IMG/VR virus record: IMGVR_UViG_3300010429_001356 | Span: 2,456-66,455 of that record | Reading direction: 5' to 3' (one strand) | Length of the DNA stretch: 64,000 bases | From: a virus | Taxonomy: Duplodnaviria > Caudoviricetes | In this document: one piece after another, positions 11,778 to 61,161 of the stretch | Layout of the letters: each line of letters opens with the position of its first letter | Position numbering within the stretch: the stretch's first letter is position 1 | Program-made: the position numbers and the translations under genes | Notes under the pieces: model-generated | Seen by the model: only the letters and a program-made list of their open reading frames with translations | Database searches by the model: none | Told to the model about the DNA's origin: nothing

Positions 11778-11804
11778 GCGTCTTCAGATTTCTCGAACTC
11801 AGCG

Positions 11805-11921
11805 CTTGTCCCGGACGAAAGACCGGGACAAGACTTCAGTGTGAGTGGGACAGGTGACCTGACCCACGTCGGCTCCGCGAGGGTGATCCAAGCGTGCCGG
11901 TGAGAACCGCCACTTGAAACA
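11805..11921 (+). ncRNA. Structured leader of the major capsid gene
   Basis: 10-bp stem with GAAA loop (11805-11832), GTGGG/CCCAC stem (11845-11867), GCGA- and GAGA-capped hairpins. Confidence 0.45.
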
Positions 11922-11963
11922 CCACAGGCTGCCCGGTGCGGCCGCATCGCAGGAGAATGACCC

Positions 11964-34212: not shown

Positions 34213-34277
34213 ACAGACCCGGACCTCTGCCGAGAGCCGGGGCTGCCAACAACTGCTGCGCTCTCGCAGCCGGACAA

Positions 34278-34586
34278 TGGAGCCGGGGGGATTCGAACCC
34301 CCGTGTTCGCTACTTCACCGAGTGCGTCTACGTGCGTAGCCGGATCAGGCAACCGGCGGCCATACTGAAGTTCCCCGACCTAAGTTAGCCTCCCAGCTCG
34401 GGGGAGCGGAGGGATCTCGCCGATGTCGCCGTCGGCCCCGGTATCGGCGTCCCGGGCGACGGGCAGGCTCAGGCGGCCTTGCGGAGGGAAACAGTGTTGC
34501 CAGTTACTTGGCTGCCCTGTTGGGGAACGGGCGTCCCTGCACGCTGCATCACGATCTCCATAGCGAGTCGATTCCGGATCGGCCCC
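34278..34586 (-). ncRNA. ssrA: tmRNA, 309 nt, tag (A)GNTVSLRKAA
   Basis: 5' GGGGCCGAUCCGGAAUCGAC; 3' GGGGGUUCGAAUCCCCCCGGCUCCA; G3.U wobble; pk1 GGGAC/GCCC/GUUCCC/GGGC; tag frame 34501-34469. Confidence 0.95.
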
Positions 34587-38165: not shown

Positions 38166-38168
38166 TCT

Positions 38169-38257
38169 GCAGGGGTAGCTCAGTTGGTAGAGCGCTGCTG
38201 TCCAGGGGCCACCGCCCCTGGTTGCGGAGGTCGGGGGTTCGATTCCCTCCCCCAGCG
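38169..38257 (+). tRNA. tRNA-shaped RNA with a 16-nt insertion in the anticodon loop (possible Trp-CCA origin)
   Basis: U8A9, D arm GCUC/GAGC, variable AGGUC, T arm GGGGG-UUCGAUU-CCCUC, acceptor GCAGGGG/CCCCAGC, G73; no encoded CCA. Confidence 0.75.
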
Positions 38258-38348
38258 TTGTGAAGGTTGCCGGGGCACCTGTTGGAAGCCCCGGGGTCTA
38301 ACGTCCGGGTGACTTGAAACAACCGGCGAACGTGAAAGGATCGAGATC

Positions 38349-40577: not shown

Positions 40578-42383
40578 ATGTCATACGGCCCCACCCTGCC
40601 CATCTCCCAAGAGACTCACGCTGAGAAGTATCGCCTGCCTGGCGAGAGCTTCGAGGAAGGGACGAGACGGGTTGCGGTCGGTCTTGCGGACGACAACGAC
40701 CACCTGGGCAGGCTCGCCCCCATCCTGCTGCACCAGCGGTTCATGGCGGGCGGGCGGGTCCAGGCGGCCATCGGCTCGCCCAAGGACGTCACCGCGTACA
40801 ACTGCTTCGTGTCCGGCACGATCGACGACTCGTTCGTCGAGGGTGCCGGGAGCATCATGGCTCGCCTGCACCAGGCCGCCGCGACGATGCGCAAGGGCGG
40901 CGGCATCGGATACGACTTCAGCACTCTCCGGCCGGAGAAGGCGCTGATCCGCAAGCTCATGTCGGCGAGCTGCGGCCCGATCCCGTTCATCCGCATCTTC
41001 GACGCGAACGGTCGCTGCATCAGCAGCGCCGGGCACCGCCGCGGTGCGCAGATGGGGGTGATGCGGGTCGACCATCCGAACATCCGAGACTTCATCCGCA
41101 TGAAGCAGCCTCCCGCTGAGGCCGCCCCCGTGATGGAGGCCATGGATGCCTGCGAACCGGGCAGCCCCGAGTGGATGAAGTGGTACTCCTGCCTGCAGAA
41201 GCTCCTCGACGTGAAGGGGTTCAACATCTCCGTCGCCCTGACCGACGAGTTCATGGAGTGCGTCCAGCAGGGCAGCCCGTTCAACCTCCGGTTCGGCGGC
41301 AAGGTGTACGAGACCGTCGAGGCCCGTGAGCTCTGGGAGCTCATGATGCGGTCGACGTGGGACTGGGCCGAGCCCGGCGCTCTGTTCATCGACACCATCA
41401 ACAGGATGAACAACCTGTGGTACTGCGAGCGCATCGCGGCCACGAACCCGTGCGGCGAGCAGCCCCTGCCGCCCTTCGGTGCCTGCCTCCTGGGCAGCTT
41501 CAACCTCGTGAAGTACATCGCGACTCGCAGCGACGGCACCCGGTACTTCGACTTCAACCAGCTCCGGGACGACATCCGCCCGGTGGTGCGCGCCATGGAC
41601 AACGTGGTCGACCGAACCCGTTACCCGCTCCGCGAGCAGGAAGCGGAAGCCCAGTCGAAGCGGCGGATGGGCCTCGGGGTCACGGGCCTCGCGAACGCCC
41701 TCGAGGCGCTCGGCCACCCCTACGGCTCGACCGAGTTCCTGCAGATGCAGCACCAGATCCTCTCCCTCATCGCCCGGTGGTGCTACATCGCGAGCACCGA
41801 GCTGGCGGAGGAGAAGGGCTCGTTCCCGCTGCTCGATGTCGACAAGTTCCTGCAGAGCGGCTTCATGAAGACCATGGACGAGGAGGTTCGTGACCTCGTC
41901 CGTCGCCGCGGCATCCGCAATAGCCACCTCCTGTCGATCGCCCCGACCGGGACCATCAGCCTCTCGGCTGACAACGTCAGCTCGTCCATCGAGCCGGTGT
42001 TCGCGTACCAGACCGAGCGGAAGATCAACATGCCCGGCGGCATGATCACCGAGGTGATTCCCGACTACGGGGTTGCCCAGTTCGGGGTGCGGGGCAAGCG
42101 GTGCTCCGACGTGACGGTCGCCGAGCACCTCGCCGTCCTCGAAACGGCGACCCGGCACGTCGACTCTGCGGTCTCCAAGACCTGCAACGTCCCGGCTGAC
42201 ACCCGCTGGTCCGACTTCCAGGACATCTACATGGAGGCTTGGCGCAGGGGCTGCAAGGGCATCACGACCTACCAGGTCGGGGGCCGCCGGGCGGGCATCC
42301 TCAAGTCCGCGGACGCGAAGGAGGAGAAGCCGGTGGAGGTCTGCCACGTCGATCCGAAGACTGGCGCAAGAAACTGCGAGTGA
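40578..42383 (+). CDS. nrdJ: Class II (B12-dependent) ribonucleotide reductase
   Basis: YNCFV, RRGAQMG, TNPCGEQ, CLLGSFNL, APTGTIS, KGITTY; no small-subunit gene nearby. Confidence 0.85.
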   Translation: MSYGPTLPISQETHAEKYRLPGESFEEGTRRVAVGLADDNDHLGRLAPILLHQRFMAGGRVQAAIGSPKDVTAYNCFVSGTIDDSFVEGAGSIMARLHQAAATMRKGGGIGYDFSTLRPEKALIRKLMSASCGPIPFIRIFDANGRCISSAGHRRGAQMGVMRVDHPNIRDFIRMKQPPAEAAPVMEAMDACEPGSPEWMKWYSCLQKLLDVKGFNISVALTDEFMECVQQGSPFNLRFGGKVYETVEARELWELMMRSTWDWAEPGALFIDTINRMNNLWYCERIAATNPCGEQPLPPFGACLLGSFNLVKYIATRSDGTRYFDFNQLRDDIRPVVRAMDNVVDRTRYPLREQEAEAQSKRRMGLGVTGLANALEALGHPYGSTEFLQMQHQILSLIARWCYIASTELAEEKGSFPLLDVDKFLQSGFMKTMDEEVRDLVRRRGIRNSHLLSIAPTGTISLSADNVSSSIEPVFAYQTERKINMPGGMITEVIPDYGVAQFGVRGKRCSDVTVAEHLAVLETATRHVDSAVSKTCNVPADTRWSDFQDIYMEAWRRGCKGITTYQVGGRRAGILKSADAKEEKPVEVCHVDPKTGARNCE

Positions 42384-42388
42384 CGGTG

Positions 42389-42416
42389 TTGCCTTCCTGT
42401 CGCTGACGGGTATACT
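42389..42416 (+). promoter_or_regulatory. Promoter TTGCCT-N16-TATACT
   Basis: Intergenic, near consensus. Confidence 0.75.
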
Positions 42417-43866: not shown

Positions 43867-44155
43867 GTTCCCCGAAGAGTACATCGCCATCAGGAGCCGC
43901 ATCCGGGATCTGTACCGCGAGCTCAACACCGGAGACTACGACCGCGCGGAGGTGACGATCGGTGGGTTCGAGATCCGCCTCTGGAAGGAGACAGTCAACT
44001 GCCGGACGAGGACGATCCTCGGCTGGAAGATGCCCTGGCACAGGGGCTACAAGTACACGAACGTCCTGGAGCTCACGGAGATGCTCTACTGCTACGAGAG
44101 CGCCCGGACGTGCCCGAACCTGAAGAGGAGCAACAGTGGGAACGCGCAAGTATGA
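43859..44155 (+). CDS. Hypothetical protein
   Basis: Tightly coupled in the operon. Confidence 0.55.
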   Translation: MGRFPEEYIAIRSRIRDLYRELNTGDYDRAEVTIGGFEIRLWKETVNCRTRTILGWKMPWHRGYKYTNVLELTEMLYCYESARTCPNLKRSNSGNAQV

Positions 44156-45071
44156 CAAGCTGAGCATCGAGGACTTCGGCGCTCACCTGCTCGACAACCT
44201 CGACCTCGACCCGATCTACGTCGCCCTCAGCCGCCTCAAGTGCGTCGAGGGCGGCTGGGATCTCGCTCGCCTGAACCGCTGGCTCATCGCCTACTGGTGC
44301 TTCTACCACGCCGGGGCCGCGTGCTACATCGCGTCCCGCCCGCGGGAGGAGTTCTGGGACTGGATGGAGCGGGCCGCCGCGAACCGCGTCGAGGAGCCGT
44401 GCCCGCTGGGCGGGAACGCCGTGAACGGGGGCTGGCCCCGCGGCCACGAGCGCCGCCACTTCCGCGGAGCCCAGGGCTACACCGCGGTCAAGGAGCTGAA
44501 GGCGAAGTACCCGGAGCCCGAGGACTTCGTGGTCGCCCTCCAGAGAGTCGACGCCGGAACGAGCGTCCCGTTCTCCAAGCTCTCCGAGAAGATCCGCGAG
44601 CACAGGAGCTTCGGCCCCTGGATCGCGTTCAAGGTCGGAGACATGCTGGAGCGGGTGCTCGGCAAGCAGGTCGACTTCACCGAGGCCGAGGTGTTCATGT
44701 TCGAAGCCCCGCGGGAGGCGGCTCTCCTGCTCTGGCGCACGAAGCAGAACCTCCCAGAGGGTGCGAGGCCGAAGGACGAAACTCAGGTCATCAAGCAGGT
44801 CGTGCGGTATCTCGCCGACCACTTCAACGGCGAGCACGTGGTCGGCAACCCGCCGGTGAAGCAGAAGATCGGCTTCCGAGCTCCACCCCTCTTCGACCGC
44901 CCGCTCGGCCTGCAGGAGATCGAGACGATCCTCTGCAAGTGGAAGAGCCACATGACGGGGTCGTACCCGCTGTGGAACGACATCGACGAGATCAACTCCG
45001 GCCTCGCCCTCTGGGCCGACACGTGCCCAGCGGTCGGGGAGTTCCTCCAGCACATGCCCAAGCGCCGATGA
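44136..45071 (+). CDS. Amino acid:DNA transferase (aGPT-Pplase2 family)
   Basis: DLDPIYVAL, YWCFYH, WPRGHERRHFRG, FGPWIAFKVGDMLERV, ETILCKW; context. Confidence 0.85.
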   Translation: MGTRKYDKLSIEDFGAHLLDNLDLDPIYVALSRLKCVEGGWDLARLNRWLIAYWCFYHAGAACYIASRPREEFWDWMERAAANRVEEPCPLGGNAVNGGWPRGHERRHFRGAQGYTAVKELKAKYPEPEDFVVALQRVDAGTSVPFSKLSEKIREHRSFGPWIAFKVGDMLERVLGKQVDFTEAEVFMFEAPREAALLLWRTKQNLPEGARPKDETQVIKQVVRYLADHFNGEHVVGNPPVKQKIGFRAPPLFDRPLGLQEIETILCKWKSHMTGSYPLWNDIDEINSGLALWADTCPAVGEFLQHMPKRR

Positions 45072-45268
45072 AGAAGATCCTGCCAATCCTCCTGACGGCG
45101 GCCCTGGGTGGCTGCTCGGCAACCCCGAGCAGCCCCCGGGTGACCGCCGGTCCCGAAGTCCCGCTCGAGAGCCCGAGCGCCTGGAGGAGTGGTATCGTTG
45201 ACCAGTCCATCAGGGAAGCGCGGGAGCGGCAGCTCATCCGCGAGCTCGGCAAGGAGATCCGCAGGTGA
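45068..45268 (+). CDS. Small lipoprotein (66 aa)
   Basis: MKK, hydrophobic core, lipobox LGGC; ATGA/GTGA coupling on both sides. Confidence 0.7.
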   Translation: MKKILPILLTAALGGCSATPSSPRVTAGPEVPLESPSAWRSGIVDQSIREARERQLIRELGKEIRR

Positions 45269-46113
45269 AGACCATCAACGTCGTCGGTGCAGGCATCGCC
45301 GGATCCCTGGTCGCTCGCGTCCTCCGCGCCCGCGGGCACGAGGTGCGGGTCATCGACGACTGCGACGTCAACTCCGCGAGCCGCGCCAGCAGCAACCTGT
45401 ACATCGGGAGCTGGCTGAAGAAGTTCAGCAGCTCCGCGGCGTCGAACGGCATCCGCGTCGTCGAGGAGCTCTTCGCCGGGAAGATCGACCAGCCCTTCAG
45501 CCGCGGCATCGCGGACGCCATGAAGGTGCGGCACATCGCCCAGCGGCACCTGCTGGTGGAGCCGGACGTCGTGACCACCGTGGTTCAGGCCGACGTCTTC
45601 ACCTCCAGCGCCGTGAAGCCCGGAGTCCCGGGGGTTGGTACCGCCGAGAAGTTCTACGAGGGTCCAGTCGTCCTGTGCACGGGCCACCGCGGAGCCGAGC
45701 TCGTCCCCGGCCTGAAGGTTGACGTCAAGGTCGGCCACTGCATCCACTTCCGCGGCCGCCTCCCCGAGGGGAGGAGCTCGCTCACGCTGGCCTCGCCCTA
45801 CGTCCACGCCAAGCTGTACCAGCTCGACGAGGACACGATCTACTTCGCTGACTCCGTCGCCGTGACGCGGGATGCCTACGCCAAGCGGAGCAAGGAGCTC
45901 ATGGACCGGACGATGGCGAGGGCCGTTGCCCTCCTGGGCTACGAGCCGGAGGTGAAGTCGATCCTCGTCGGCTACCGACCGTTCGTCGCCGGGCACGACT
46001 TCGGCTACCTCGCTCAGGTGAAGCCCGACGTGTGGGTGCTGAACGGTGGCGGCAAGAACGGGATCATCGCCTACGCCGACGCGGCGGACAGGCTCGCCAA
46101 GGAGATCGCATGA
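45265..46113 (+). CDS. FAD-dependent oxidoreductase/lyase (DAO-like)
   Basis: VVGAGIAG Rossmann motif, GYRP, NGGGKNG. Confidence 0.85.
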   Translation: MKTINVVGAGIAGSLVARVLRARGHEVRVIDDCDVNSASRASSNLYIGSWLKKFSSSAASNGIRVVEELFAGKIDQPFSRGIADAMKVRHIAQRHLLVEPDVVTTVVQADVFTSSAVKPGVPGVGTAEKFYEGPVVLCTGHRGAELVPGLKVDVKVGHCIHFRGRLPEGRSSLTLASPYVHAKLYQLDEDTIYFADSVAVTRDAYAKRSKELMDRTMARAVALLGYEPEVKSILVGYRPFVAGHDFGYLAQVKPDVWVLNGGGKNGIIAYADAADRLAKEIA

Positions 46114-46577
46114 GCAGCCCCATCCAGAAGATCAAGATCCGCCCGGCCACGAAGGCTGACCACGACCGGCTCGCGCAGATCGCCCGCAGCCACCGCGCCG
46201 GGCAGGGGTTCACGCACTTCATGTTCAGCGGCGACGCCGCGTACGAGAAGGGCTGGATCCGGGTCGCGGTCGTCGACGGCGGCGACATGGACGGGGACAT
46301 CGTCGGCTTCACGTGCGTCCGCCACAAGAAGCGGGAGCCGAAGACGATGCTGTACTACATCATCGTCGAGACGTGGGCTCGCCGGGACTCGAAGCCGGGC
46401 GTCCGCATCGGTCAGGCTCTCCTCGACGACCTGATCGCAACTTCTCCGCACAGGTGCATCGAGCTGAGTTGCCTCAAGGACAACGCTGAGGCACTTCAGT
46501 TCTATGCAAAGAACGGGTTCGAGCAGAAGGGTGAGGCTCTCAAGGGGAAGGGTTGGCACCTGGAGCTCCGCTGGTGA
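46110..46577 (+). CDS. GNAT acetyltransferase of the modification cluster
   Basis: IRPAT, IVGF, RIGQALL, DNAEALQFYAKNGF. Confidence 0.88.
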   Translation: MSSPIQKIKIRPATKADHDRLAQIARSHRAGQGFTHFMFSGDAAYEKGWIRVAVVDGGDMDGDIVGFTCVRHKKREPKTMLYYIIVETWARRDSKPGVRIGQALLDDLIATSPHRCIELSCLKDNAEALQFYAKNGFEQKGEALKGKGWHLELRW

Positions 46578-46963
46578 ACCAAGCCGAGTACATGCGCGAG
46601 TATCGCAAGGTTCCGAGGAACATCAGGCGTCGCCGCGAGTACATGCGCTCCCGGGAGGTCAGGAAGCAGATCATGCTCCGAGACGCGAAGAAGAGAGCCA
46701 AGAGGCAGGGGGTACCGTTCAGACTGAAGCTGGAACACCTCGAGATACCTGAGCGGTGCCCCGCGCTCGGTATCCGGCTGAGGCACGGCGTCAAGAAGTT
46801 CGTCGACGGCTCTCCTACGCTGGATCGGATCGTCCCGAGCAGAGGGTACGTTCCAGGAAACGTCGTTGTCGTAAGTCACAAGGCGAATCGCATCAAGAGC
46901 AATGCAACAGCTCGAGAGGTGTTGCTTGTCGCTCGGTTCTACATGCGGAAGACTAAATCATGA
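46574..46963 (+). CDS. Free-standing HNH-like endonuclease (paralog of 7426-7803)
   Basis: CPALG..SPTLDRIVPSRGYVPGNVVVVSHKANRIK. Confidence 0.8.
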   Translation: MNQAEYMREYRKVPRNIRRRREYMRSREVRKQIMLRDAKKRAKRQGVPFRLKLEHLEIPERCPALGIRLRHGVKKFVDGSPTLDRIVPSRGYVPGNVVVVSHKANRIKSNATAREVLLVARFYMRKTKS

Positions 46964-47619
46964 TTGTGAACATCCGCGGCACATCTGGCTCCGGCAAGAC
47001 GACCCTCATCCGTGAGCTGTTCAAGCTCGCCCGGGACCGCTCGGTCTGGGATCCGCTCTGGTCGGAGATCCCCGAGTCGCTCCTGCCCAGGAACGACAAG
47101 GGCGAGCTGAAGAAGCGCAAGCAGCCCTGGGGCTACGTCCTCGAGATGCCGGAGCCTTTCCGCCGGAACGTGGTCGTCATCGGCCACTACGAGACGGCGT
47201 GCGGCGGGTGCGACACCATCCCGTCGTTCGACTTGGGCTTCGCTCTCATCCGGGCCGCCCACAAGTGCAACTACGACGTGGTGTACGAGGGCCTGCTCTA
47301 CTCGGCCGACGCCGAGCGCACGCTCGCTCTCCACCGGGAGGGACTCGACCTCCACGTCATCGCCCTGAACACCCCGCTGGACGTCTGCATCGCCTCGGTC
47401 AACGAGCGGCGTCAGGGCAGCAAGCGGGCGCTCAAGCGAGCCGAGAAGGGCGAGGAGAAGCTGCCCGACGTCAACCCGAAGAACACCGAGTCGAAGTTCA
47501 AGGGCACCCAGAGCACGATGGCGAAGCTCCAGGCCGCGGGCGTCGACGCTCACTGGTGCAGCCGGGAGGGTGCGGTGCAGCGCCTGGTCCAGCTCCTCAC
47601 GGAGGGGCGAGCCGCTTGA
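46960..47619 (+). CDS. P-loop kinase, 5-hmdU DNA kinase type
   Basis: IRGTSGSGKTT, IGHYETACGGCDTI, EGLLYS; context. Confidence 0.75.
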   Translation: MIVNIRGTSGSGKTTLIRELFKLARDRSVWDPLWSEIPESLLPRNDKGELKKRKQPWGYVLEMPEPFRRNVVVIGHYETACGGCDTIPSFDLGFALIRAAHKCNYDVVYEGLLYSADAERTLALHREGLDLHVIALNTPLDVCIASVNERRQGSKRALKRAEKGEEKLPDVNPKNTESKFKGTQSTMAKLQAAGVDAHWCSREGAVQRLVQLLTEGRAA

Positions 47620-48494
47620 ACCAGGACAACGTCAACCTATTCTTCCGGATCGCTCGGGAGCGATACTCGATCAAGCTCCTCCGAGAGAAGATGCCGCACA
47701 GCCCCGAGCTCTGGACGGACGACGAGATCTTCCGCCGGTGGCGGTTCTGCAACGTCTTCCGCGAGGACGACAAGACAACCGCGTGGTTCCGCCGGAACAT
47801 CCGCGGCCCGCTCTCGCTGCGGGGGCCGGACGTCATGCTGGCCACGGCGCTCTTCCGCTGGTTCAACCGCATCGACACGGCCGACAAGATCGTCGAGTTC
47901 ATGACGGTCGAGGGGTACAGCGAGGACGGGATCCGGAAGGCGCTGGAGGGTCACAAGCCCCTCGTGACCGGGGCCTACATGATCAAGACGCCCGCGGGCA
48001 TGAACAAGCTCGAGGGCATCCTCTGGTGCATGCGGCCCTACGTCAAGGACGTCGTGCACCTCGCGACCCACGTCGAGCCGGAGACCACCCTGGAGGGCAT
48101 GTGGACCGTCCTCCGGATGTACCCGTACCTCGGCTCGTTCATGTCCTACGAGATCGTCAGCGACCTCCGCCACACCTGCCTCCTGCGCAACGCCCCCGAC
48201 ATCATGACCTGGGCCGCGGCCGGACCCGGCTGCGCCCGCGGGCTGGGCTGGGTCGTCGCGGGCGAACCCGAGGCGTATGGCTACACCTCCGCCAAGGACC
48301 AGCTGCGGATGCTGGCTCTGATGAAGGAGCTCCTCGCCATCAGCCAGAGCGAGGCCCAGTGGCCGAAGTGCTGGCCGAAGTGGGAGATGCGGGAGGTCGA
48401 GCACTGGCTCTGCGAGACCTGGAAGTACGTGCGGTGCCGGGACTACGGCCAGCCGCCCAAGGAGAAGTTCCGGTGCACCACCCCAGCAACCTGA
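47616..48494 (+). CDS. 5-hmdU DNA kinase helical domain (aGPT-Pplase1 family)
   Basis: WTDDEIFRRWRFCNVFREDDKT, FRWFNR, TGAYMI, GPGCARGL, EVEHWLCE. Confidence 0.85.
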   Translation: MNQDNVNLFFRIARERYSIKLLREKMPHSPELWTDDEIFRRWRFCNVFREDDKTTAWFRRNIRGPLSLRGPDVMLATALFRWFNRIDTADKIVEFMTVEGYSEDGIRKALEGHKPLVTGAYMIKTPAGMNKLEGILWCMRPYVKDVVHLATHVEPETTLEGMWTVLRMYPYLGSFMSYEIVSDLRHTCLLRNAPDIMTWAAAGPGCARGLGWVVAGEPEAYGYTSAKDQLRMLALMKELLAISQSEAQWPKCWPKWEMREVEHWLCETWKYVRCRDYGQPPKEKFRCTTPAT

Positions 48495-48955
48495 GCAAGG
48501 CCGAGCTCGACGCGGCCTTCGACAACTCCGACTCCCGGCTGACGATCGCCGTCGACTTCGACGGCACGATCGTCGATCACCGCTACCCGGACATCGGAGC
48601 GCCCGCGTGCGGCGCGTTCGACTGGCTCCGCGAGCTGAAGCGGCGGGGGGTCAAGCTCATCCTCTGGACGATGCGGTCGGACTCGTCGAAGGACGGCCCC
48701 ACCCTGACGAACGCGGTCGAGTTCTGCCGGAAGCACGGCGTCGAGTTCGACCACGTCAACGAGAACCCGGGTCAGCGCACGTGGACCACGTCCCCGAAGT
48801 GCTACGCCCACATGTACGTCGACGACGCCGCGGTGGGGGTGCCCCTCCGCGACTCGCCCCGGGCCGGTGGGCGTCCAGTCGTCGACTGGCACCGGCTCGG
48901 ACCGATGATCCTCGAGCGGGTGCACGCTCACAACGACCGGAGGAAGAAGCCGTGA
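48473..48955 (+). CDS. HAD-superfamily phosphatase
   Basis: IAVDFDGTIV, ILWTMR, MYVDD. Confidence 0.85.
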   Translation: MHHPSNLSKAELDAAFDNSDSRLTIAVDFDGTIVDHRYPDIGAPACGAFDWLRELKRRGVKLILWTMRSDSSKDGPTLTNAVEFCRKHGVEFDHVNENPGQRTWTTSPKCYAHMYVDDAAVGVPLRDSPRAGGRPVVDWHRLGPMILERVHAHNDRRKKP

Positions 48956-49122
48956 ACGAATCCTGGTACAACCCGCTGTCCCTCATGCGAGCGATGCTCG
49001 GGCACCAGAAGCCCGACATCCTCACCGCCGACCCCAGCGAGTACGGCCGCAAGACCCGCACCCGCATCCAGCAGCTCCGGAACCGCAAGCGGTTCAAGCA
49101 GCGGAAGTCCCGGAGCCGCTGA
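48952..49122 (+). CDS. Small basic hypothetical protein (56 aa)
   Basis: GTGA overlap; Arg/Lys-rich tail. Confidence 0.45.
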   Translation: MNESWYNPLSLMRAMLGHQKPDILTADPSEYGRKTRTRIQQLRNRKRFKQRKSRSR

Positions 49123-49124
49123 GC

Positions 49125-49565
49125 GTGCCGCAGCGCCCGCCAGCGTACCTGCCGCCCGTCACCGACGACAAGGTTGTCGCGAGGTTCACCTCGCGCCTGT
49201 CCATGCCGGGGAACGACGCCTGCTGGTTCTGGTGGGGGCACGTTTCGGAGAAAGGATACGGCCAGTTCTGGATGGACGGCCGCGCCCACTGGGCGCACCG
49301 GGTCGCCTACGCGATCTGGGTCGGGGAGATACCGGCGGGCATGACGCCCGACCACACCTGCGGACGCGGGTGCTGCGTCAACCCGCGGCACCTGACGCTC
49401 GTCACGGTCTCGGAGAATGCGAGGAGGCGATGGGAGAGGGAGCGGGCAAGTTGCCCTCCGTCGACCGACGGCTATACTCAGGCGAAGGAAACGCAACATG
49501 CTGACGATCAAAGCACGCAACGTCCACCAGGCACTCCCCGAGATGCTGTATCAGCTCCGCGCTAG
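49125..49565 (+). CDS. HNH_3-type endonuclease
   Basis: CWFWWG..GYGQF..AHRVAY..DHTCGRGCCVNPRHL..EN. Confidence 0.85.
   Translation: MPQRPPAYLPPVTDDKVVARFTSRLSMPGNDACWFWWGHVSEKGYGQFWMDGRAHWAHRVAYAIWVGEIPAGMTPDHTCGRGCCVNPRHLTLVTVSENARRRWERERASCPPSTDGYTQAKETQHADDQSTQRPPGTPRDAVSAPR
49451..49478 (+). promoter_or_regulatory. Promoter TTGCCC-N16-TATACT for the hydroxymethylase operon
   Basis: Lies inside the HNH 3' end, 19 nt before ATG 49498. Confidence 0.65.
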
Positions 49566-50544
49566 CGGGGTGCGCCGGGAGAGCCGCAACGGGCCGGTGC
49601 TGGTCTTCCCGCACCCGGTCGTCGTGGAGTACACGCGGCCGCAGGAGCGGGTCATGTACTGGCCCGAGCGGGACTGCAACCCGTTCTTCCACTTCTTCGA
49701 GGCGCTGTGGATGCTCGGCGGCCGCAACGACGTGGCCTTCCCGGTGCGGTTCAACAGCACCTTCGGCCAGTTCAGCGACGACGGCGTGACCTTCAACGCG
49801 GCCTACGGGCACCGCTGGCGTCGGTACTTCGGCTACGACCAGCTCGAGATCGTCGCCCAGAGGTTGAAGGAGAACCCCGACGACCGGCGCGTCGTCCTCG
49901 GGATGTGGGATCCGCACGAGGATCTCGGCTCGTCGAGCAAGGACGTGCCCTGCAACCTGAGCGCCTGCTTCCAGCGGGGTGCGGACGGCGAGCTGAACAT
50001 GACGGTCTACAACCGCTCCAACGACATCGTCTGGGGCGCGCTCGGGGCGAACGCGGTCCACTTCAGCGTGCTGCAGGAGTTCCTGGCGCTCGCCATCGGG
50101 TGCCCGGTGGGCCGGTACTGGCAGATCTCCTGCAACATGCACGGCTACCTGAAGACGGTCGAGCCCCTCATGTCGCTCGCGGACAGGGCGTTCCCGTCGA
50201 CCCAGGCCCAGGCGTCCGACCCCTACGAGCAGGGCGTCGTCCAGCCGCTCGAGATGTTCCCCTCCGGCACGGGGGGCGACTTCGTCAGCGACCTGGCGAT
50301 GTTCCTCGACGAGGGCGAGCGGGCGATGGGGTACAAGACGAAGTTCATGCGTCGTGTCGCGATGCCGCTGCTGCGGTCGTGGCTCGCGTTCAAGGACAGC
50401 AGCGACCCGGCGCGGTTCCACAACGCGCGGAAGATCGTCCAGGTGGACTGCCACGCGAAGGACTGGGCGCTCGCCTGCGACCAGTGGCTCGTCCGCCGGG
50501 AGGAGAAGGCGCGGGCCAAGGCGGCCGCGACCCAGGAGGAGTGA
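49498..50544 (+). CDS. Thymidylate-synthase-fold dUMP hydroxymethyltransferase
   Basis: ESRNG, NPFFHFFEALWMLGGRND, DVPCN, NRSNDIVWGALGANAVHF (Asn implies uracil specificity), NMHGY. Confidence 0.85.
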   Translation: MLTIKARNVHQALPEMLYQLRASGVRRESRNGPVLVFPHPVVVEYTRPQERVMYWPERDCNPFFHFFEALWMLGGRNDVAFPVRFNSTFGQFSDDGVTFNAAYGHRWRRYFGYDQLEIVAQRLKENPDDRRVVLGMWDPHEDLGSSSKDVPCNLSACFQRGADGELNMTVYNRSNDIVWGALGANAVHFSVLQEFLALAIGCPVGRYWQISCNMHGYLKTVEPLMSLADRAFPSTQAQASDPYEQGVVQPLEMFPSGTGGDFVSDLAMFLDEGERAMGYKTKFMRRVAMPLLRSWLAFKDSSDPARFHNARKIVQVDCHAKDWALACDQWLVRREEKARAKAAATQEE

Positions 50545-50547
50545 GCC

Positions 50548-51018
50548 GTGCCCGACCAGAAGCCCCGAGTCTACCTGATCTGCCCCGTCCGCCGCTGCAC
50601 CCCCGAGGTGCGAGCGGAGATGGACGCCTACGTCGCTGGCCTCGAGGCCCGCGGGTACGAGGTGCACTACCCTCCCCGCGACGTCGACCAGCGGAACGAC
50701 GACGGCGGTGTGCGGATCTGCATGGAGCACCTCGACGCGATGATGGGCTGCGACGAGATCCACGCCTGGTGGGATCCCGCGAGCTCCGGCTCACACTTCG
50801 ACCTGGGCATGGCGTACATGCTCCACGCCATCCGGTTCGTGCTGCACGCCCGCCTGGGCCGAGCTGGCATCGACGAGCTGCGGGAGAAGCACGACATCCG
50901 CGTCTCCGACATCCCGACCTTCGTGGTGGCCAATCCCCACCAGGTCAAGCCCGACCCCGAGAAGTCGTTCACCAACGTGCTGCTGGAGCTCGCGGCGCGG
51001 CCGAGGATCCTGACATGA
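50548..51018 (+). CDS. Nucleoside 2-deoxyribosyltransferase-like nucleotide N-hydrolase
   Basis: VYLICP..EVHYPPRD..SSGSHFDLGMAY. Confidence 0.7.
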   Translation: MPDQKPRVYLICPVRRCTPEVRAEMDAYVAGLEARGYEVHYPPRDVDQRNDDGGVRICMEHLDAMMGCDEIHAWWDPASSGSHFDLGMAYMLHAIRFVLHARLGRAGIDELREKHDIRVSDIPTFVVANPHQVKPDPEKSFTNVLLELAARPRILT

Positions 51019-51755
51019 CGAAGTACAATCCCGCTAAGGCGAAGGAGTACGTGCAGCGACCTGAAGTTCGCGAGAAGCGGGCCGCGTACTACCGCAAGCC
51101 GGAGGTGCGAGATCGAAGGAACGCGAAGCAGCGAGCAGCGAATAGGGGACCGACCAACTACAAGAGGCGTCTCCGCAAGCTCCTCGCTCTTGGCCTCACC
51201 GCCCAGGAAGCAGAGCGACAGCTCGCCAAGACGATCTGCGACTGTTGCGGGGATCCGTTCGGTGAGGAGACTTCGCACATCGACCACGACCACAAGACGA
51301 ACGAGTTCCGAGGGATGATCCACCTCCAGTGCAACGTCGCGATCGGTATGTTCCGAGATCGCGTCGGGGCAATGGTGCTCGCCTCTCGATACGTCGATCC
51401 CTTCAACCGATCTCCACTCTCGGTGGACAGCGGGCCTCGGTTCCTCGAGTACCTCGACGCAATCGCAGCAGAAGACGCTGAGGGGTTGCACGTGGCTGCG
51501 AAGAGCTACGGGCCTTCATGGAAGCAGGGCGGCGGCAGCAACGCCTTCGCCATGCTCAAGCGGAAGTGGGACCGGCTGGTCAATCGGCTGGTTCGCCCCG
51601 AGATCAACGGAGACATCTTCAAGGGGATCGCGACGGACGACCGCGGCGAGGGCGTGATCGACGACGTCCGCGACCTCCGGCGATACCTCCTGCTAGTCGA
51701 GGCTGAGATGCGGGCGCGGGGGTTCCGCCGCGTGCATCGGGACAACAAGCGATGA
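51015..51755 (+). CDS. Endonuclease VII fused to a Nmad1/DUF1599-like domain
   Basis: CDCCG..HIDHDHKTNEFRGMIHLQCNVAIG, then SYGPSW..RKWDRL..EGVIDDVRDLRRY. Confidence 0.7.
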   Translation: MTKYNPAKAKEYVQRPEVREKRAAYYRKPEVRDRRNAKQRAANRGPTNYKRRLRKLLALGLTAQEAERQLAKTICDCCGDPFGEETSHIDHDHKTNEFRGMIHLQCNVAIGMFRDRVGAMVLASRYVDPFNRSPLSVDSGPRFLEYLDAIAAEDAEGLHVAAKSYGPSWKQGGGSNAFAMLKRKWDRLVNRLVRPEINGDIFKGIATDDRGEGVIDDVRDLRRYLLLVEAEMRARGFRRVHRDNKR

Positions 51756-51850: not shown

Positions 51851-52660
51851 ATGAGTAAGTTGTCGAACCGTCCGAAGCTGACCGATCCGAATCGCCTGAA
51901 CCCGCAGACCGGGAAGACGCATGGCATCGCCATCTCGTTCTTCAAGACTCTGTGCCGGGCCATCTACTTCACCCCGGAGGGTCAGCGGGGGAGCCGAGTC
52001 GAGGTGGTCAAGGAGGCTCTCGAGATCATGCCCTGGTTTCCCGAGGAGCACAAGAGGCTCCGAGGCAGCCTCCCGACCGATTCCCAGTACCTGAACTGGG
52101 TGTCGACCACCGTCGGGTTCAAGTACGCCAGCACTCCTGAGTTGGCAATGAAACTCCTGCGGGAGTCGAAGAGCCAGGACGCGGAGGGCGAGGATCCTCG
52201 ACTGTCGCTTCAGAAGAAGATCGAGCTCCTGGTGGCTCGTCAGCTCATCGCAAGGGATCAGTCACTGGACAGCCTTGACCACCTGAGGCAGCTCCTGCTG
52301 GACAACGGCTTCCGCCCCACCGGGCGATACGTCGAGGGCACCGGATTCGAGTTCGTCTACGTCATCTCGATGGGGGATCGCACCAAGGTGGGCTTCACTA
52401 CGGACATCGAGGATCGCCTCGCTTCGTACAAGACCCACACCCCGAACAAGCTGGAGGTGTTCGCGATCCGCCTCTTCCCCGGCGATGGACGTCCGCTGGA
52501 GCAGCAGGTTCACAAGATGCTTGCTTCGACTCCGCTCCGCGTGGATGCACGTAACGAGTGGTATTTCATGCCCGCGGCGGTCGCCGAGGCTATCGTGATC
52601 GGCACGGCCGCCCAGATGGGCCTGTCCGTGGCTGGTGCCGAGAATCGCCAGACCGTGTGA
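51851..52660 (+). CDS. GIY-YIG (T5orf172-like) endonuclease
   Basis: FVYVI..TKVGFTTDIEDRL..LEQQVH..NEWY; AT-richer. Confidence 0.75.
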   Translation: MSKLSNRPKLTDPNRLNPQTGKTHGIAISFFKTLCRAIYFTPEGQRGSRVEVVKEALEIMPWFPEEHKRLRGSLPTDSQYLNWVSTTVGFKYASTPELAMKLLRESKSQDAEGEDPRLSLQKKIELLVARQLIARDQSLDSLDHLRQLLLDNGFRPTGRYVEGTGFEFVYVISMGDRTKVGFTTDIEDRLASYKTHTPNKLEVFAIRLFPGDGRPLEQQVHKMLASTPLRVDARNEWYFMPAAVAEAIVIGTAAQMGLSVAGAENRQTV

Positions 52661-54614: not shown

Positions 54615-55111
54615 AGTTCAAGGCAGTCACCAAGGTGAAGAGGCGATACCCCACGAGCACCCCGGGGCTGATCGCCCAGGGCGAGTTCCGCGTCAGGGGA
54701 GGTGGCTCCCTCTGGGCGAAGGTGCTCGTGTTCGAGCGCCCGCGCGACCTCCAGCGGTTCTTCGCGGAGGATCTCGGCCGCCCCGTCGGGAGGAAGTGCC
54801 TCGGCGCTGTGAGCTCGATGTCAACGTCGTTCTACGACGTGCGGCCGGGGCGGGAGATCAAGGAGCGCGTCGAGTTCGACCGCCGCTACTTCTGCCTGAT
54901 CGGCCTCACCCGCGAGAACGTGACGATGCGTGTCCTCAGCCACGAGGCGGTGCACGCCGGGTTCTGCCACGCGAAGCGAGCCAGGAAGACCGACTGGGAC
55001 AGGGAGGCACTTGGCTTCGACGAGGAGGCTGTCGCATATCCTGCCGGTGAGGTGGCACGCGAGCTCGTTGTCTTCCTGGAGCGAGAGGGTATACTCGAGA
55101 CGCAGCCATGA
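54611..55111 (+). CDS. Hypothetical with zincin-like HExxH motif
   Basis: LSHEAVHAG..DEEAVAY. Confidence 0.5.
   Translation: MKFKAVTKVKRRYPTSTPGLIAQGEFRVRGGGSLWAKVLVFERPRDLQRFFAEDLGRPVGRKCLGAVSSMSTSFYDVRPGREIKERVEFDRRYFCLIGLTRENVTMRVLSHEAVHAGFCHAKRARKTDWDREALGFDEEAVAYPAGEVARELVVFLEREGILETQP
55068..55095 (+). promoter_or_regulatory. Promoter TTGTCT-N16-TATACT
   Basis: 12 nt before ATG 55108. Confidence 0.6.
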
Positions 55112-55428
55112 ACGAGAACGCCCCAGAGTTCTACAGCGAGCGCCGCGTCAAGACGCGGAAGCCGCACCGCTGCTACGAGACTCGTCGAGACATCCCGAAG
55201 GGAGCTCAGGCAGTCATCGTGACAGGCAAGTGGGACGGGGAGGTCAGGTCCATGTACTTCCTCCCAGAGGCAATGGAGCTCTGGAAGCAGGTCGACCAGC
55301 AGTACCGCAAGATGGACGAGGAGCTATGCTTCGGCGGGCTGCACGAGCACTTCGTCCAGCAGAAGCACTACAACCCCGACGACCCGCTCGTCGCTCGGTG
55401 GGAGGAGCTATGTCAGAAGCCAGCGTGA
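55108..55428 (+). CDS. Hypothetical protein
   Basis: KTRKPHRC..GKWDG pattern. Confidence 0.6.
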   Translation: MNENAPEFYSERRVKTRKPHRCYETRRDIPKGAQAVIVTGKWDGEVRSMYFLPEAMELWKQVDQQYRKMDEELCFGGLHEHFVQQKHYNPDDPLVARWEELCQKPA

Positions 55429-55910
55429 AGTGGGACCAGCGGTTCCTCCAGATGGCGGCCGTGGTCGCCGGGTGGAGCAAGGATCCGAGCACCAAGTGCG
55501 GCGCGGTGATCGTGGCCCCCGACCGGAGGGTCATCTCCCTCGGCTTCAACGGGTTCCCGCAGCGCATGCCGGACAGCCCCGAGCTCTACGCGAACCGCGA
55601 GGAGAAGTACAGCCGCATCGTCCACTGCGAGATGAACGCCGCTCTCTTCGCCAAGGAGAGCCTGCGGGGTGCGACGCTCTACACGTGGCCCTGCCTGTCG
55701 TGCGACCGCTGCGCGGTCCACATGATCCAGGCTGGCATCGTGCGGTGCGTCGCTCCGCTCCCGTCTGACGACATGCTCTCCCGCTGGGCACCGATGCTCG
55801 CCAAGACCCGCCAGTACTTCCTGGAGGCTGGCGTCCAGTTCAGCGAGTACCAGCTCACCGGGCACGCGGCCTTCACCATCCCGGAGATCGCGAGCTCGCA
55901 CAAGCCATGA
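55410..55910 (+). CDS. dCMP deaminase
   Basis: SKDPSTKCGA, GFNG, HCEMNA, PCLSCDRC. Confidence 0.92.
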   Translation: MSEASVKWDQRFLQMAAVVAGWSKDPSTKCGAVIVAPDRRVISLGFNGFPQRMPDSPELYANREEKYSRIVHCEMNAALFAKESLRGATLYTWPCLSCDRCAVHMIQAGIVRCVAPLPSDDMLSRWAPMLAKTRQYFLEAGVQFSEYQLTGHAAFTIPEIASSHKP

Positions 55911-56488
55911 TCAAGCGCATCAACCTATACGGAGGCCCCGGCTCCGGCAAGTCGACCGCGGCCCACTTCCTGATGTGGCGGCTCAAGTCGGCTGGCCTGC
56001 AGGCGGAGCTCTCGCGGGAGTGGATCAAGCGGCTCGCGTTCCGCGGCCCCGCGCCCGAGAGGATCTTCCTCCAGCCCGTCGCCTGCGGCGCTCAGCTCGA
56101 CGAGGAGCTCCAGGCGCTCGCGACCGGAGCAGTCGTGGTGACCGACTCACCGCTGCTGCTCCAGGCCGCCTACGCCGAGTGCGAGCTCGACCTGAAGAGG
56201 TCGGTCGTGACGGCCCAGGAGATGGAGAAGCGGCACCCGGCCGTCCACATACTCCTGGACCGCGGCAACAAGCCGTTCGCCCAGGAGGGTCGCTGGGAGG
56301 ACGAGGAGGCCGCCAAGGCGAAGGACCAGACCATGGTCGACCTGCTCCAGCTCGCGGGGTTCCGGTACCACACGGTGCCGCACAACCACTGGGAGCGGCT
56401 CTGGTCGGTCGTTGCGGGCGAGCTCGGGCGTCCCGAGCTCGTCGACGGGCACCCTGAGTGGTGCCGCTGCGTGATGTGCCTGCACTGA
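55907..56488 (+). CDS. NadR/AAA_28-like P-loop nucleotide kinase
   Basis: INLYGGPGSGKST, VTDSPL, GRW. Confidence 0.75.
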   Translation: MIKRINLYGGPGSGKSTAAHFLMWRLKSAGLQAELSREWIKRLAFRGPAPERIFLQPVACGAQLDEELQALATGAVVVTDSPLLLQAAYAECELDLKRSVVTAQEMEKRHPAVHILLDRGNKPFAQEGRWEDEEAAKAKDQTMVDLLQLAGFRYHTVPHNHWERLWSVVAGELGRPELVDGHPEWCRCVMCLH

Positions 56489-57230: not shown

Positions 57231-59656
57231 GCAGCGTTGCACCCAACTACTCCGACTCGCTGGCCTTCCTGGAGCGGTGGCTCCCAGGAGGGCCGTGGCT
57301 CCTCACTGCCATCGGCCTGGACAAGACGGGGATCGAGACCCGCGCGTTCAGGGCCGACCAGAAGGACGAGCTGCGCAAGTGGCTGGAGCAGCAGGGTGCG
57401 CACCGCAACATCTACTTCAGCGTCAACACGTGCTTCCCCGAGTACCTCGCGAGGGCTGACGGGACTCGGTCGAAGAAGACCGAAGCCACCGACATCCAGC
57501 GGATGGTATGCCTGCACGTGGACCTCGACCCCCGCGAGGGCGAGGACCGGACGAAGGAGCAGGAGCGGATCAAGGCTCGGCTCACGAGCAACCTCCCGCA
57601 GGGGGTGCCGTCACCGTCGCTCGTGGTGTTCTCCGGCGGCGGCTACCAGGGCTTCTGGCTCCTGAAGGAGCCCGTCGTCCTCGACGGTAGCAAGCCGATG
57701 GCGGAGGACGCCAAGCGGTGGAACCTCCAGATGGAGGTGCTCTTCGGAGCCGACCACTGCCACAACATCGACCGCATCATGCGGCTGCCGGGCACGGTCA
57801 ACCGGCCGGACGCCAAGAAGAAGGCGAAGGGTCGAGTCGAGGCGCTGGCGGAGGTGGTCGAGTGGCACGCTGACCGGGTGTACGAGATCGGCCAGTTCAC
57901 CAAGGCCCCGGAGGTTCAGACTCCCGGCGGCGGGGACGCCAGCACCTCGGGCGTGGCCCAGCGGGTGAAGGTCAGCGGCAACGTCAAGCGGTACAACGGC
58001 GACATCGACGCGGTCCCCGGCGCGGACAAGCTCCCCGGCAAGGCTCGCGTCGTCATCGTCCAGGGACTCGACCCCGACGAGCCGCACAAGTTCGGCAACA
58101 GCAGGAGCGAGTGGCTCCTGTTCGCTTGCTGCGCGATGGTTCGGGCCGGGTTCGACGACGACACGATGTACGCCGTGATCACCGACCCGCGGTTCGGGAT
58201 CAGCGCCTCGGTCCTCGACAAGGGGAGCGCCACCGAGAAGTACGCCATCCGCCAGATCGAGCGGGCCAAGGAGGAGGCCGTCGACCCCTGGCTCCGGAAG
58301 CTCAACGAGAAGCACGCGGTCATCCGCAACTGGGCCGGGAAGACCCGCATCATCGAGGAGGTCTGGGATCCGATCCTCAGCCGCCACAAGGTCACGCGGA
58401 TGTCGTTCGACGACTTCCGCAACGGCTACATGCACGAGCAGGTCCAGATCGGGCAGACCGACAAGGGCGTGCCGATCACGAAGCCAGTCGGGCAGTGGTG
58501 GCTCCAGAACAACCAGCGGCGTCAGTACGAGACGCTCGTGTTCGCTCCCGGGAAGGAAGTGCCCGGCGCGTACAACCTCTGGCGCGGGTTCGCGTGCGAG
58601 GCACGGCCAGGAGACTGCAGCAAGTTCCTGAACCACCTCGAGCACATCCTGTGCCGCGGCGTCAAGGAGCACTACGACTACCTCATCGGCTGGATGGCCC
58701 GCTGCGTCCAGCAGCCCGCCAGCCCCGGGTACTCCGCCGTCGTCATGCGGGGCGGCATGGGCACCGGCAAGAGCTACGTCGCGAAGATGTTCGGCTCGCT
58801 GTTCGGTCGGCACTACATGTCCGTCACCGACCCGAAGCACCTCGTGGGGGCGTTCAACGCGCACCTCCGTGACTGCGTGCTACTCCTGGGCGAGGAGGCG
58901 TTCTACGCTGGCGACAAGAAGCACGAGTCGATCCTGAAGATGCTGATCACCGAGGAGCTGATCACGATCGAGGCGAAGGGCGTCGACGCGGAGGCGAGCG
59001 GCAACTGCGTCCACCTGATGATGGCCTCGAACGAGGACTGGGTGGTGCCGACGAGCTTCGACGACCGCCGGTTCTTCGTCCTCGACATCAGCGAGGACCG
59101 GAAGGAGGATCACGCCTACTTCCAGGAGATCACGGAGCAGATGGACAAGGGTGGCCGCGAGGCGCTGCTGTACTTCCTGCTCAACTACGACCTGAAGGGC
59201 TTCAACGTGCGGAAGGTGCCGAAGACGGCGGGCCTCCAGCAGCAGAAGCTCCTCTCCATGGACCCCATGGAGGCGTGGTGGTACGAGAAGCTCCAGAACG
59301 GGAAGCTGCTGGTTGAGCACGACAACTGGCGGCCAGAGCTCGCCTGCCAGGATCTCCAGACGGACTTCTTCGAGCACTGCAGGCAGCTCAACATCGCCCG
59401 CCGCGGCGACAACACCAAGCTCGGGGAGGCGCTGAAGAAGTTCTGCCCGCCCGAGGCGCTCAAGGTGACGCAGGGTCGCTCCCCGGTCGAGGTCATGATG
59501 CCCGGCGGGCAGAAGAAGATGATCAACCGCCCGTACTACTACAAGTTCCCCTCTCTCGAGGAGTGCCGCGAGTGGTGGGACAGGAAGTTCGGCGGCCCGT
59601 ACCAGTGGCGCAAGGCGGAGGACGGCGAGCCGAAGAAGGACGAGGTGCCGTTCTGA
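57227..59656 (+). CDS. Primase-helicase (RepB/AEP-like primase plus SF3 helicase)
   Basis: [24 protein letters not shown]; [23 protein letters not shown]. Confidence 0.88.
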
Positions 59657-60036
59657 TGCGCCTGCTCGTCTGCGGAGGTCGCGACTTCTCCGACGTCGCT
59701 CTCCTCGAGAGTATCCTGGACGACATTCACTCGAAGACTCCTGTGACGTGCCTCGTGCACGGCGCTGCGAGAGGAGCCGACGCGCTCGCGGCCCAGTGGG
59801 CGGCGAGCAGGGGCGTCCCGGCGCTCGCGTTCCCGGCCGACTGGGAGCGGGACGGGAGGGCGGCCGGTCCCCTCCGGAACGGCCGCATGCTGGAGGAGGG
59901 CCGCCCCGATTCGGTCGTCGCCTTCCCCGGCGGCCGCGGGACCGCCGACATGGTGGCGAGGTCCAGGCGGGCCGGGCTGCCCGTCACGGGGCCGGGAGCT
60001 CCTCCACCCCCTCCAACCGAGCCTCGGCTCTTCTGA
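59656..60036 (+). CDS. SLOG-superfamily protein (DUF2493-like)
   Basis: [32 protein letters not shown]. Confidence 0.85.
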
Positions 60037-60126: not shown

Positions 60127-61161
60127 ATGGCTCATGAGATTACTGTCAAGGACGTCTTCGGCGAGGTTCGGGCGCGCGGCGAGCGAGCCTGGCACGGGCT
60201 GGGCGTCGAGATGCCCCCGGGCCTCGGCGCGTGGGAGGGCTTCCAGCGCATCGGCCTCGACTGGGAGACCGAGCTCCTCCCGATGCAGGCGGTCCTCCCC
60301 GAGGGCGGCGTGATCGCGGCTGACGACGTCAAGATGCACGTCCGCAAGGACACCCGCGACTTCCTGGGCACGGTCAGCTCCGGCTACCGCCCCATCAGCA
60401 ACCGCCGACTGGCCGAGTGGATGGACGAGCTCTGCGGCGCTGACGCCGCGGTCCAGCTCGAGACCGCTGGCTCCCTCCGCGGCGGCCGCCGGGTGTTCTG
60501 CTCGGTCAAGCTCCCGAAGACGATCGAGGTCGTGAACGACGACATCCTCGAGCTCTACATCATCGGCTCCAACGCCCACGACGGCTCCGCCCGCTTCAAC
60601 ACCTACGGCAGCAGCATCCGTCCCGTGTGCGCCAACACGCTCGGCTTCTCGGAGCGCGACCTGCACCGCGGCGTGTCCTTCCAGCACACTGGTGACGTCG
60701 ACATCAAGATCGAGAAGGCCCGCGCCGCGCTGGGCATCGTCCTGAAGGAAGCCGATCGGTACGAGACCGAGTGCCAATCGCTCGTCCGCCTGAACCTCAA
60801 CAAGGAGCAGATCTCCGCCTACTTCGAGGCGGTGTACGACAAGACGTTCGGCGTGATCCACGACAGCCTCCCCAAGGAGGAGCAGGAGCGCCGGGCCGAG
60901 CACAAGAAGAAGACGCTGGCCCAGTGGATGCTCCTGATGGACGACGCGAAGCAGAACATCAAGGGCATCACCGGCACCGCGTGGGCCGCCTTCAACGCCT
61001 ACTCGCAGTGGTCCGACCACGAGCGCGGCCGCTTCGGCGGGGTCGACGAGAGCGACGACCGCGTGCACTCGAACCTCTTCGGCGTCTCCGCCATCGGCAA
61101 GAAGAAGGCGTGGAAGCAGGCCCTGAGCCTCATCAACGGGAAGACGCTGGTCACCGCCTGA
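60127..61161 (+). CDS. DUF932/DUF945-family protein
   Basis: ERAWHGLG, ETAGSLRGGRRVF, NAHDGS, IRPVCANT, GTAWAAFNA. Confidence 0.85.
   Translation: MAHEITVKDVFGEVRARGERAWHGLGVEMPPGLGAWEGFQRIGLDWETELLPMQAVLPEGGVIAADDVKMHVRKDTRDFLGTVSSGYRPISNRRLAEWMDELCGADAAVQLETAGSLRGGRRVFCSVKLPKTIEVVNDDILELYIIGSNAHDGSARFNTYGSSIRPVCANTLGFSERDLHRGVSFQHTGDVDIKIEKARAALGIVLKEADRYETECQSLVRLNLNKEQISAYFEAVYDKTFGVIHDSLPKEEQERRAEHKKKTLAQWMLLMDDAKQNIKGITGTAWAAFNAYSQWSDHERGRFGGVDESDDRVHSNLFGVSAIGKKKAWKQALSLINGKTLVTA

Follow-up and report, generated by a model that had tools for sequence, protein, structure and literature searches.

The DNA considered here is a stretch of 64,000 nucleotides (the window) that spans bases 2456-66455 of the 66,455-bp IMG/VR virus record IMGVR_UViG_3300010429_001356, the whole of which is rated 100% complete by CheckV, and it carries at 44136-50544 a gene cluster that is predicted to hypermodify thymidine in the manner of Pseudomonas phage PaMx11. 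Almost every gene lies on the plus strand and the GC content is about 66% (66.5%); as such GC-rich DNA is open in several frames at each long stretch, genes were called by the GC content of third codon positions (GC3). An earlier note made from the letters alone had listed six genes in this interval, namely an amino-acid:DNA transferase (AADT), a flavoenzyme, a GNAT acetyltransferase, a P-loop kinase, a kinase helical domain and a dUMP hydroxymethylase. All six are present on the plus strand with frames confirmed by GC3, and the interval also holds five open reading frames (ORFs) that the note did not list: two HNH endonuclease genes, a HAD-like gene and ORFs of 66 and 56 amino acids (aa). From the AADT gene through the 56-aa ORF each gene overlaps the next by 4-22 bases, and the order of the six modification genes is the same as that of PaMx11 gp46-gp51.

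Genes of the modification cluster

The AADT gene (44136-45071, +) encodes a PUGT-like protein (PF18724, E 1.6e-23; phrog_6364, E 5e-91) with 43% identity to PaMx11 gp46 and is predicted to be a glycine:5-phosphomethyl-deoxyuridine (dU) transferase. Its matches in the PDB are the M6-type AADT 25qc (1e-85) and PaMx11 gp46 (8z2m, 3e-75), both of them glycine transferases. The functional residues of gp46 and gp47 have been named from their crystal structures (PMC11472151), and in pairwise alignment the AADT is identical to gp46 at the glycine contacts D24, W146 and K150, at the metal residues E243 and T244 and the proposed nucleophile C247, and at the base-flipping residues R94, H95 and F173. The protein, which is a clade-2 AADT and has the gp46 residues for glycine binding and catalysis, also keeps Y47, Y51, E92, R97, R141, the FGPW146 motif, D262 and E265, and differs at D175 (Ala) and K261 (Asn).

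The flavin adenine dinucleotide (FAD) enzyme (45265-46113, +; PF01266, E 1.2e-13) is a predicted FAD-dependent N-alpha-glycinylthymidine oxidase/lyase (NGTO) that resembles PaMx11 gp47 at 24% identity and belongs to a divergent clade. PaMx11 gp47 (8z2o/8z79) is its sole sequence match in the PDB (E 6.5e-13) and is also the top Foldseek match (8z2o, TM score 0.85, E 9e-22) of an AlphaFold2 model with a mean predicted confidence (pLDDT) of 93.6, followed by glycine oxidases and related enzymes (E ~1e-12, TM 0.55-0.70). It is a compact oxidase of the gp47 type that retains the W51/Y180/K268 thymine cage, with P179, together with R242, which is proposed to hold the glycyl carboxylate. W51, P179, R242 and K268 are invariant in PaMx11, Stenotrophomonas phage Sonora and 21 metagenomic homologues, and position 180 is Tyr in most homologues and Phe in three; Q182 of gp47 is His in the clade of this phage. 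The chemistry proposed for gp47 is that of the FAD domain of MnmC, which converts cmnm5U to nm5U in tRNA (PMC8989533). The fold class is shared with MnmC (3pvc, a weaker structural match at TM 0.59), but MnmC acts on a tRNA substrate, is a much larger two-domain protein and has no significant sequence match to the oxidase.

The GNAT gene (46110-46577, +; PF13508/PF00583) lies directly downstream of the oxidase gene, whose stop codon its start codon overlaps, and encodes a gp48 orthologue that is a predicted 5-aminomethyl-dU N-acetyltransferase. Identity to gp48 is 38% by tblastn (E 1.4e-28) and 41% by global full-length alignment, with conserved blocks.

The predicted P-loop kinase for 5-hydroxymethyl-dU (5-hmdU) in DNA (5-HMUDK; 46960-47619, +) is the orthologue of gp49 (44% identity, E 9e-47), with a weak match to PF18748 (E 5e-4). 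The Walker A motif GTSGSGKT, among other columns, is unchanged relative to M6 gp54, which has been tested biochemically; tblastn gives no kinase match to M6, and identity to the Bhz59 and Sonora kinases is 28-30%. The kinase is accompanied by a 5-hmdU DNA kinase helical-domain protein (47616-48494, +; PF18723, E 2.3e-37) that is the orthologue of gp50 (52%). The frame of the helical gene was set by GC3, and a single 461-aa gene at 47570-48955 was rejected since the GC3 plot resolves this region into 47616-48494 and 48473-48955, two genes that use different frames. The earlier note took the division of the kinase over two genes as a departure from PaMx11, but the P-loop and helical parts are also two genes in PaMx11 (gp49 and gp50) and in M6 (gp54 and gp55), so that a split kinase is the normal state in this group. 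M6 gp54 alone is enough as a kinase in vitro.

The last of the six genes (49498-50544, +) encodes a thymidylate synthase (TS)-fold enzyme (PF00303, E 2e-20; phrog_5131, E 1e-122) that is predicted to be a dUMP 5-hydroxymethylase and is 51% identical to both M6 gp58 and PaMx11 gp51. Of the solved structures, the CMP hydroxymethylase MilA matches it best (1.4e-19), with thymidylate synthases scoring less well (5e-13). The catalytic Cys is present, the site of U/C specificity is Asn, where Asp stands in T4 gp42, which is cytosine-specific, and in the enzyme of Xp12, and a one-residue insertion is held in common with the SPO1-like and ViI enzymes. Among cultured phages its relatives rank as M6/PaMx11-like, Rhizobium phages, SPO1-like and ViI-like, and the M6-like, SPO1-like and ViI-like groups use 5-hmdU (PMC8989533). 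Phylogeny was a check proposed by the earlier note, and a small tree does join the enzyme to the M6/PaMx11 clade (bootstrap 90/95), and E. coli ThyA and Xp12 fall in a separate group (93/99); with long branches and poorly supported deeper forks, the tree was used just for this separation. Assignment as a dUMP hydroxymethylase is well supported by orthology, short of proof. The longest ORF would start at 49417, and the start at 49498 was preferred on the basis of its ribosome-binding site (AAGGAAA), alignment to gp51 and a promoter-like site upstream.

Two further genes named in the earlier note as support for the cluster are real. A dCMP deaminase (55425-55910, +; PF00383, E 8e-16; phrog_174, E 2e-41), the orthologue of PaMx11 gp56 (46%), would supply dUMP, and a single-chain ribonucleotide reductase (RNR) is encoded at 40578-42383 (+; PF02867, E 2.5e-100; M6 gp46, 59%).

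The predicted pathway and its alternatives

Gene for gene the cluster is a known enzyme set, and it represents a known system with no new chemistry. The PaMx11-type pathway put forward by the earlier note is supported by orthology to gp46-gp51, gene order and the conserved residues of gp46 and gp47, and 5-acetylaminomethyl-dU (5-AcNmdU) is the most likely product, a reading that can be held with good though incomplete confidence. The enzymatic activities and the final base are predictions from the presence and order of the genes, their orthology, the catalytic residues that are kept and the oxidase fold, and they follow PaMx11/M6 chemistry, the PaMx11 pathway having been reconstituted (PMC8989533). 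In the proposed sequence of steps, the dCMP deaminase and the TS-fold enzyme would yield 5-hmdUMP from dUMP, and the phage PolA would put 5-hmdU into DNA in place of T. The P-loop kinase with its helical partner would phosphorylate 5-hmdU in DNA, and the AADT would exchange the phosphate for glycine via an exocyclic methylene intermediate to give N-alpha-glycinylthymidine. The FAD oxidase would then oxidise the bond between N and C-alpha, with hydrolysis of the imine to 5-aminomethyl-dU and glyoxylate, and the GNAT would acetylate the amine to 5-AcNmdU. The earlier note had seen no pyridoxal phosphate (PLP) decarboxylase or radical S-adenosylmethionine (SAM) gene, and this holds across the whole 66,455-bp record, in which no match to Radical_SAM (PF04055), PALP (PF00291) or Tet_JBP is found and tblastn with M6 gp52 (PLP) and gp53 (radical SAM) gives no match; the M6-type PLP decarboxylase and radical SAM isomerase are absent.

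Several points weigh against this reading. The oxidase is just 24% identical to gp47, has the change of Q182 to His and falls in a separate clade, the acyl donor of the GNAT is not readable from sequence, and TS and hydroxymethylase activities are not rigorously separable by sequence. The genome lacks counterparts of the HD-domain and MazG-type genes of PaMx11, a gap that bears on how dTTP would be excluded. The 5-AcNmdU of PaMx11 itself was made in vitro, and a comparison with the DNA of PaMx11 virions was not open to the authors (PMC8989533).

A variant in which this oxidase clade and the GNAT make another thymidine derivative (e.g., another N-acyl-aminomethyl-dU), and/or in which the phage infects Planctomycetota, is unlikely but deserves some weight. 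A similarly doubtful case is that the early steps proceed as in PaMx11 but the final base is not 5-AcNmdU, either because the GNAT uses another acyl-CoA or substrate or because the pathway effectively stops at 5-aminomethyl-dU. The oxidase clade is found both with and without a recognisable GNAT, the gene being missing from two (L042 and L043) of the five TS-linked IMG/VR loci with an oxidase identity of at least 43%, and phage Sonora has an AADT and a FAD enzyme with no GNAT; the donor specificity of a GNAT just 38-41% identical to gp48 is also not revealed by its sequence. Set against this, the GNAT is clearly orthologous to gp48 over its full length, has the same position, is translationally coupled to the oxidase and is kept in the relatives L008, L009 and L010.

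Far less probable is the transfer by the AADT of a nucleophile other than glycine, whether another amino acid or an amine, which would leave the oxidase to act on a different adduct. AADTs of other phages do take serine or putrescine (PMC8989533), identity to the glycine enzymes is just 43-46%, and D175 and K261 of gp46 are changed here, but the glycine contacts D24, W146 and K150 are kept (the putrescine enzyme of phiW-14 has Tyr in place of W146), the two closest relatives that have been characterised transfer glycine, and the oxidase retains the Arg that binds the glycyl carboxylate. That the TS-fold enzyme is an ordinary thymidylate synthase, with the cluster inactive or acting on something besides phage DNA, is hardly credible: the family is annotated as thymidylate synthase in records and hydroxymethylase activity is not provable by sequence alone, but 5-hmdU is used by the cultured phages that carry its relatives (the M6, PaMx11, SPO1-like and ViI-like groups), a solved hydroxymethylase resembles it more closely than TS does, E. 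coli ThyA and Xp12 lie apart from it in the tree, all cluster genes are intact with coding-type GC3, and in a genome with no Tet/JBP gene the kinase and AADT would lack a substrate if 5-hmdU were not made.

Relation to known phages and to metagenomic loci

The genome, of siphophage type and from an uncultured phage, is a distant relative of the PaMx11/M6 group and tentatively Mesyanzhinovviridae-like. Collinearity with PaMx11 runs from the terminase through to the ligase, with amino-acid identities of 22-65%, and of the ~75 called genes 33 match PaMx11 in the shared order, including TerL (60%), the major capsid protein (65%) and PolA (56%); by DNA polymerase the nearest cultured relatives are PaMx11-like phages, at 56%. 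At the DNA level, a megablast search with the cluster retrieved nothing from 50,697 phage records, and relatives exist at the protein level only.

The genomic neighbourhood of the cluster is common to the two phages, each having helicase, RNR, the cluster, PolA and dCMP deaminase, with no PLP or radical SAM genes and with a two-gene kinase. The differences are that the cluster proteins are 24-52% identical, with an oxidase from another clade in which Q182 is His, that two HNH endonucleases, a lipoprotein-like ORF, the HAD phosphatase and the 56-aa ORF are intercalated here, and that a nucleoside-2-deoxyribosyltransferase-like protein occupies the position where PaMx11 has the HD-domain gp52. 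In addition, no MazG-type gene is found here and the RNR is single-chain as in M6.

The pathway to 5-(2-aminoethyl)-dU (5-NedU) in Pseudomonas phages M6/YuA comprises the gp51 AADT, the gp52 PLP decarboxylase, the gp53 radical SAM isomerase, the gp54 kinase, gp55 and gp58. The backbone is shared with M6, including AADT (46%), the TS-like enzyme (51%) and RNR (59%), and the first three steps (5-hmdU, phosphorylation and glycinylation) would be common, whereas M6 has PLP and radical SAM genes where the FAD oxidase and GNAT stand here. The kinase and helical protein are much closer to those of PaMx11 (44% and 52%), with the helical protein 33% identical to that of M6. In Sonora the cluster consists of AADT, FAD enzyme, kinase, helical protein, Nmad5 and TS; its gp47-type FAD enzyme, 26% identical to the one described here, likewise directly follows the AADT, but the cluster has no GNAT and includes an Nmad5 protein. 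The Sonora pathway probably stops at, or diverges after, 5-aminomethyl-dU.

Metagenomic PaMx11-like contigs are already known (PMC8989533), and the oxidase has ~60 metagenomic homologues at 25-89% identity. Each of the 19 IMG/VR loci that encode a full-length oxidase relative has an AADT within ~1.5 kb, in 18 of them directly upstream, and the association also holds in Logan contigs. In the five closest loci a TS-type enzyme is paired wherever the contig reaches it and a GNAT is found in three, whereas 13 of the 14 more distant loci pair with Tet/JBP instead. The 60%-identical relative L010 has the order AADT, FAD enzyme, GNAT, kinase, helical protein, TS and PolA. AADT/oxidase pairs beside a Tet/JBP dioxygenase, mostly with no recognisable GNAT, are seen with more distant oxidase relatives, in the IMG/VR loci L045-L057 and L060 and in L011, and this pairing is a different route to the same intermediate. 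The AADT and gp47-type oxidase are a tightly linked module that occurs with either TS-type hydroxymethylases or Tet/JBP enzymes, and the PaMx11-type pathway, as predicted here, would reach into a phage lineage that is far more divergent. With their divergence, the oxidase and GNAT widen the range of sequences available for enzymology and for the enzyme-assisted detection of 5-hydroxymethyluracil (5-hmU) and its derivatives.

Intercalated genes, neighbouring features and host

The ORFs intercalated in the cluster include a 66-aa ORF (45068-45268, +; GC3 0.86) with a lipobox-type signal peptide (MKKILPILLTAALGGC), which is wedged between the AADT and oxidase genes and translationally coupled to both through ATGA and GTGA overlaps. 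It is kept in L008 (90%) and L009 (59%) and absent from PaMx11, M6 and L010, and family searches gave no match. An HNH homing endonuclease gene (46574-46963, +; phrog_3322, E 6e-32), with GC3 below that of its neighbours, separates the GNAT and kinase genes. It is missing in the 96%-identical relative L008, where the GNAT and kinase genes abut, and the insertion is therefore recent. A second HNH homing endonuclease gene (49125-49565, +; PF13392, E 2.6e-11; phrog_1872, E 7e-28) overlaps the start of the TS-like gene. Between the helical and TS-like genes lie a gene for a small HAD-superfamily phosphatase-like protein (48473-48955, +; phrog_1238, E 5e-29) with a DFDGT motif, a candidate nucleotidase, and the 56-aa ORF (48952-49122, +; GC3 0.96), which is 100% conserved in L008 and gave no match in family searches. 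The 160-aa HAD-like protein, not found in PaMx11, has weak matches to HAD and PNK-phosphatase families, and its atlas neighbours include HAD-like phage proteins; homology to M6 gp56 or Sonora Nmad5 was rejected by comparison, and the PHROG label "phosphoheptose isomerase" is unsupported, the motifs being HAD-like.

A 6-kb stretch around the modification and TS genes contains four homing-endonuclease-type genes, the two HNH genes (46574-46963 and 49125-49565) being followed by genes at 51015-51755 and 51851-52660; the four comprise two HNH, one EndoVII-domain and one T5orf172/MUG113 protein. No group I intron or other RNA family near these genes reached the Rfam threshold. A nucleoside-2-deoxyribosyltransferase-fold protein is encoded at 50548-51018, the position held by an HD-domain hydrolase in PaMx11 and M6, and may be a non-orthologous replacement in nucleotide-pool control. 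Read by eye against the family motif, the position of the usual catalytic Glu appears to be Asp in its translation. L010 carries at 11316-12125 a single 269-aa gene in which a deoxyribosyltransferase-like N-terminal domain is joined to a C-terminal domain, and this corresponds to two ORFs here (50548-51018 and 51015-51755), the second of which begins with an EndoVII/HNH module. Insertion of the endonuclease appears to have split a gene of the 269-aa type at the domain boundary. Directly after the dCMP deaminase gene is that of a P-loop AAA_28 protein (55907-56488; E 1e-14), which has no PaMx11 homologue and is a candidate nucleotide kinase for 5-hmdUMP. Speculatively, the HAD phosphatase, the deoxyribosyltransferase-like protein and the AAA_28 protein could all act in pool control.

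An extended promoter-like motif, GTTGYCYTCC-N12-GGSTATACT, occurs at three plus-strand sites, compared with 1.0 +/- 1.0 in shuffles, and TATACT is rare in this GC-rich genome. Each site is just upstream of a gene block, the blocks beginning with a DUF3489 gene, the TS-like gene and the gene that precedes the dCMP deaminase. The first (42389-42416, +; GTTGCCTTCC-N-GGGTATACT) is upstream of the block leading into the modification genes and is a consensus match for which promoter function is predicted; the second (49451-49478, +) is 20 nt upstream of the TS-like start codon and supports the start at 49498; and the third is at 55068-55095 (+).

The earlier note had proposed a different high-GC host. 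Divergence of the proteins from those of PaMx11 does suggest another host, but the GC content of 66.5% is near the 64.5% of PaMx11 and by itself gives no argument for one. A full-length transfer-messenger RNA (tmRNA) gene is present at 34275-34586 on the minus strand (Rfam RF00023, 76 bits, E 1e-27), with a tag that ARAGORN reads as GNTVSLRKAA and an unusual Gly resume codon. The first 20 bases of the tmRNA occur exactly in nine of ~185,000 species genomes, eight of the nine from Planctomycetota. Among 301 Planctomycetota genomes none closely matches the body of the tmRNA, similarity being limited to the tRNA-like ends, and when 20 kb of the phage DNA was compared by BLAST with five genomes of that phylum, only weak short matches and nothing spacer-like emerged. 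These data give a weak hint of a host in Planctomycetota, and such a host, if confirmed, would extend thymidine hypermodification to phages of that phylum. Elsewhere in the genome, the late replication module encodes a YAcAr/SLOG-family protein (59656-60036) and a DUF932 protein (60127-61161), and a long (~90 nt) tRNA-Trp(CCA) gene (38168-38258, +) lies between two genes of the replication module.

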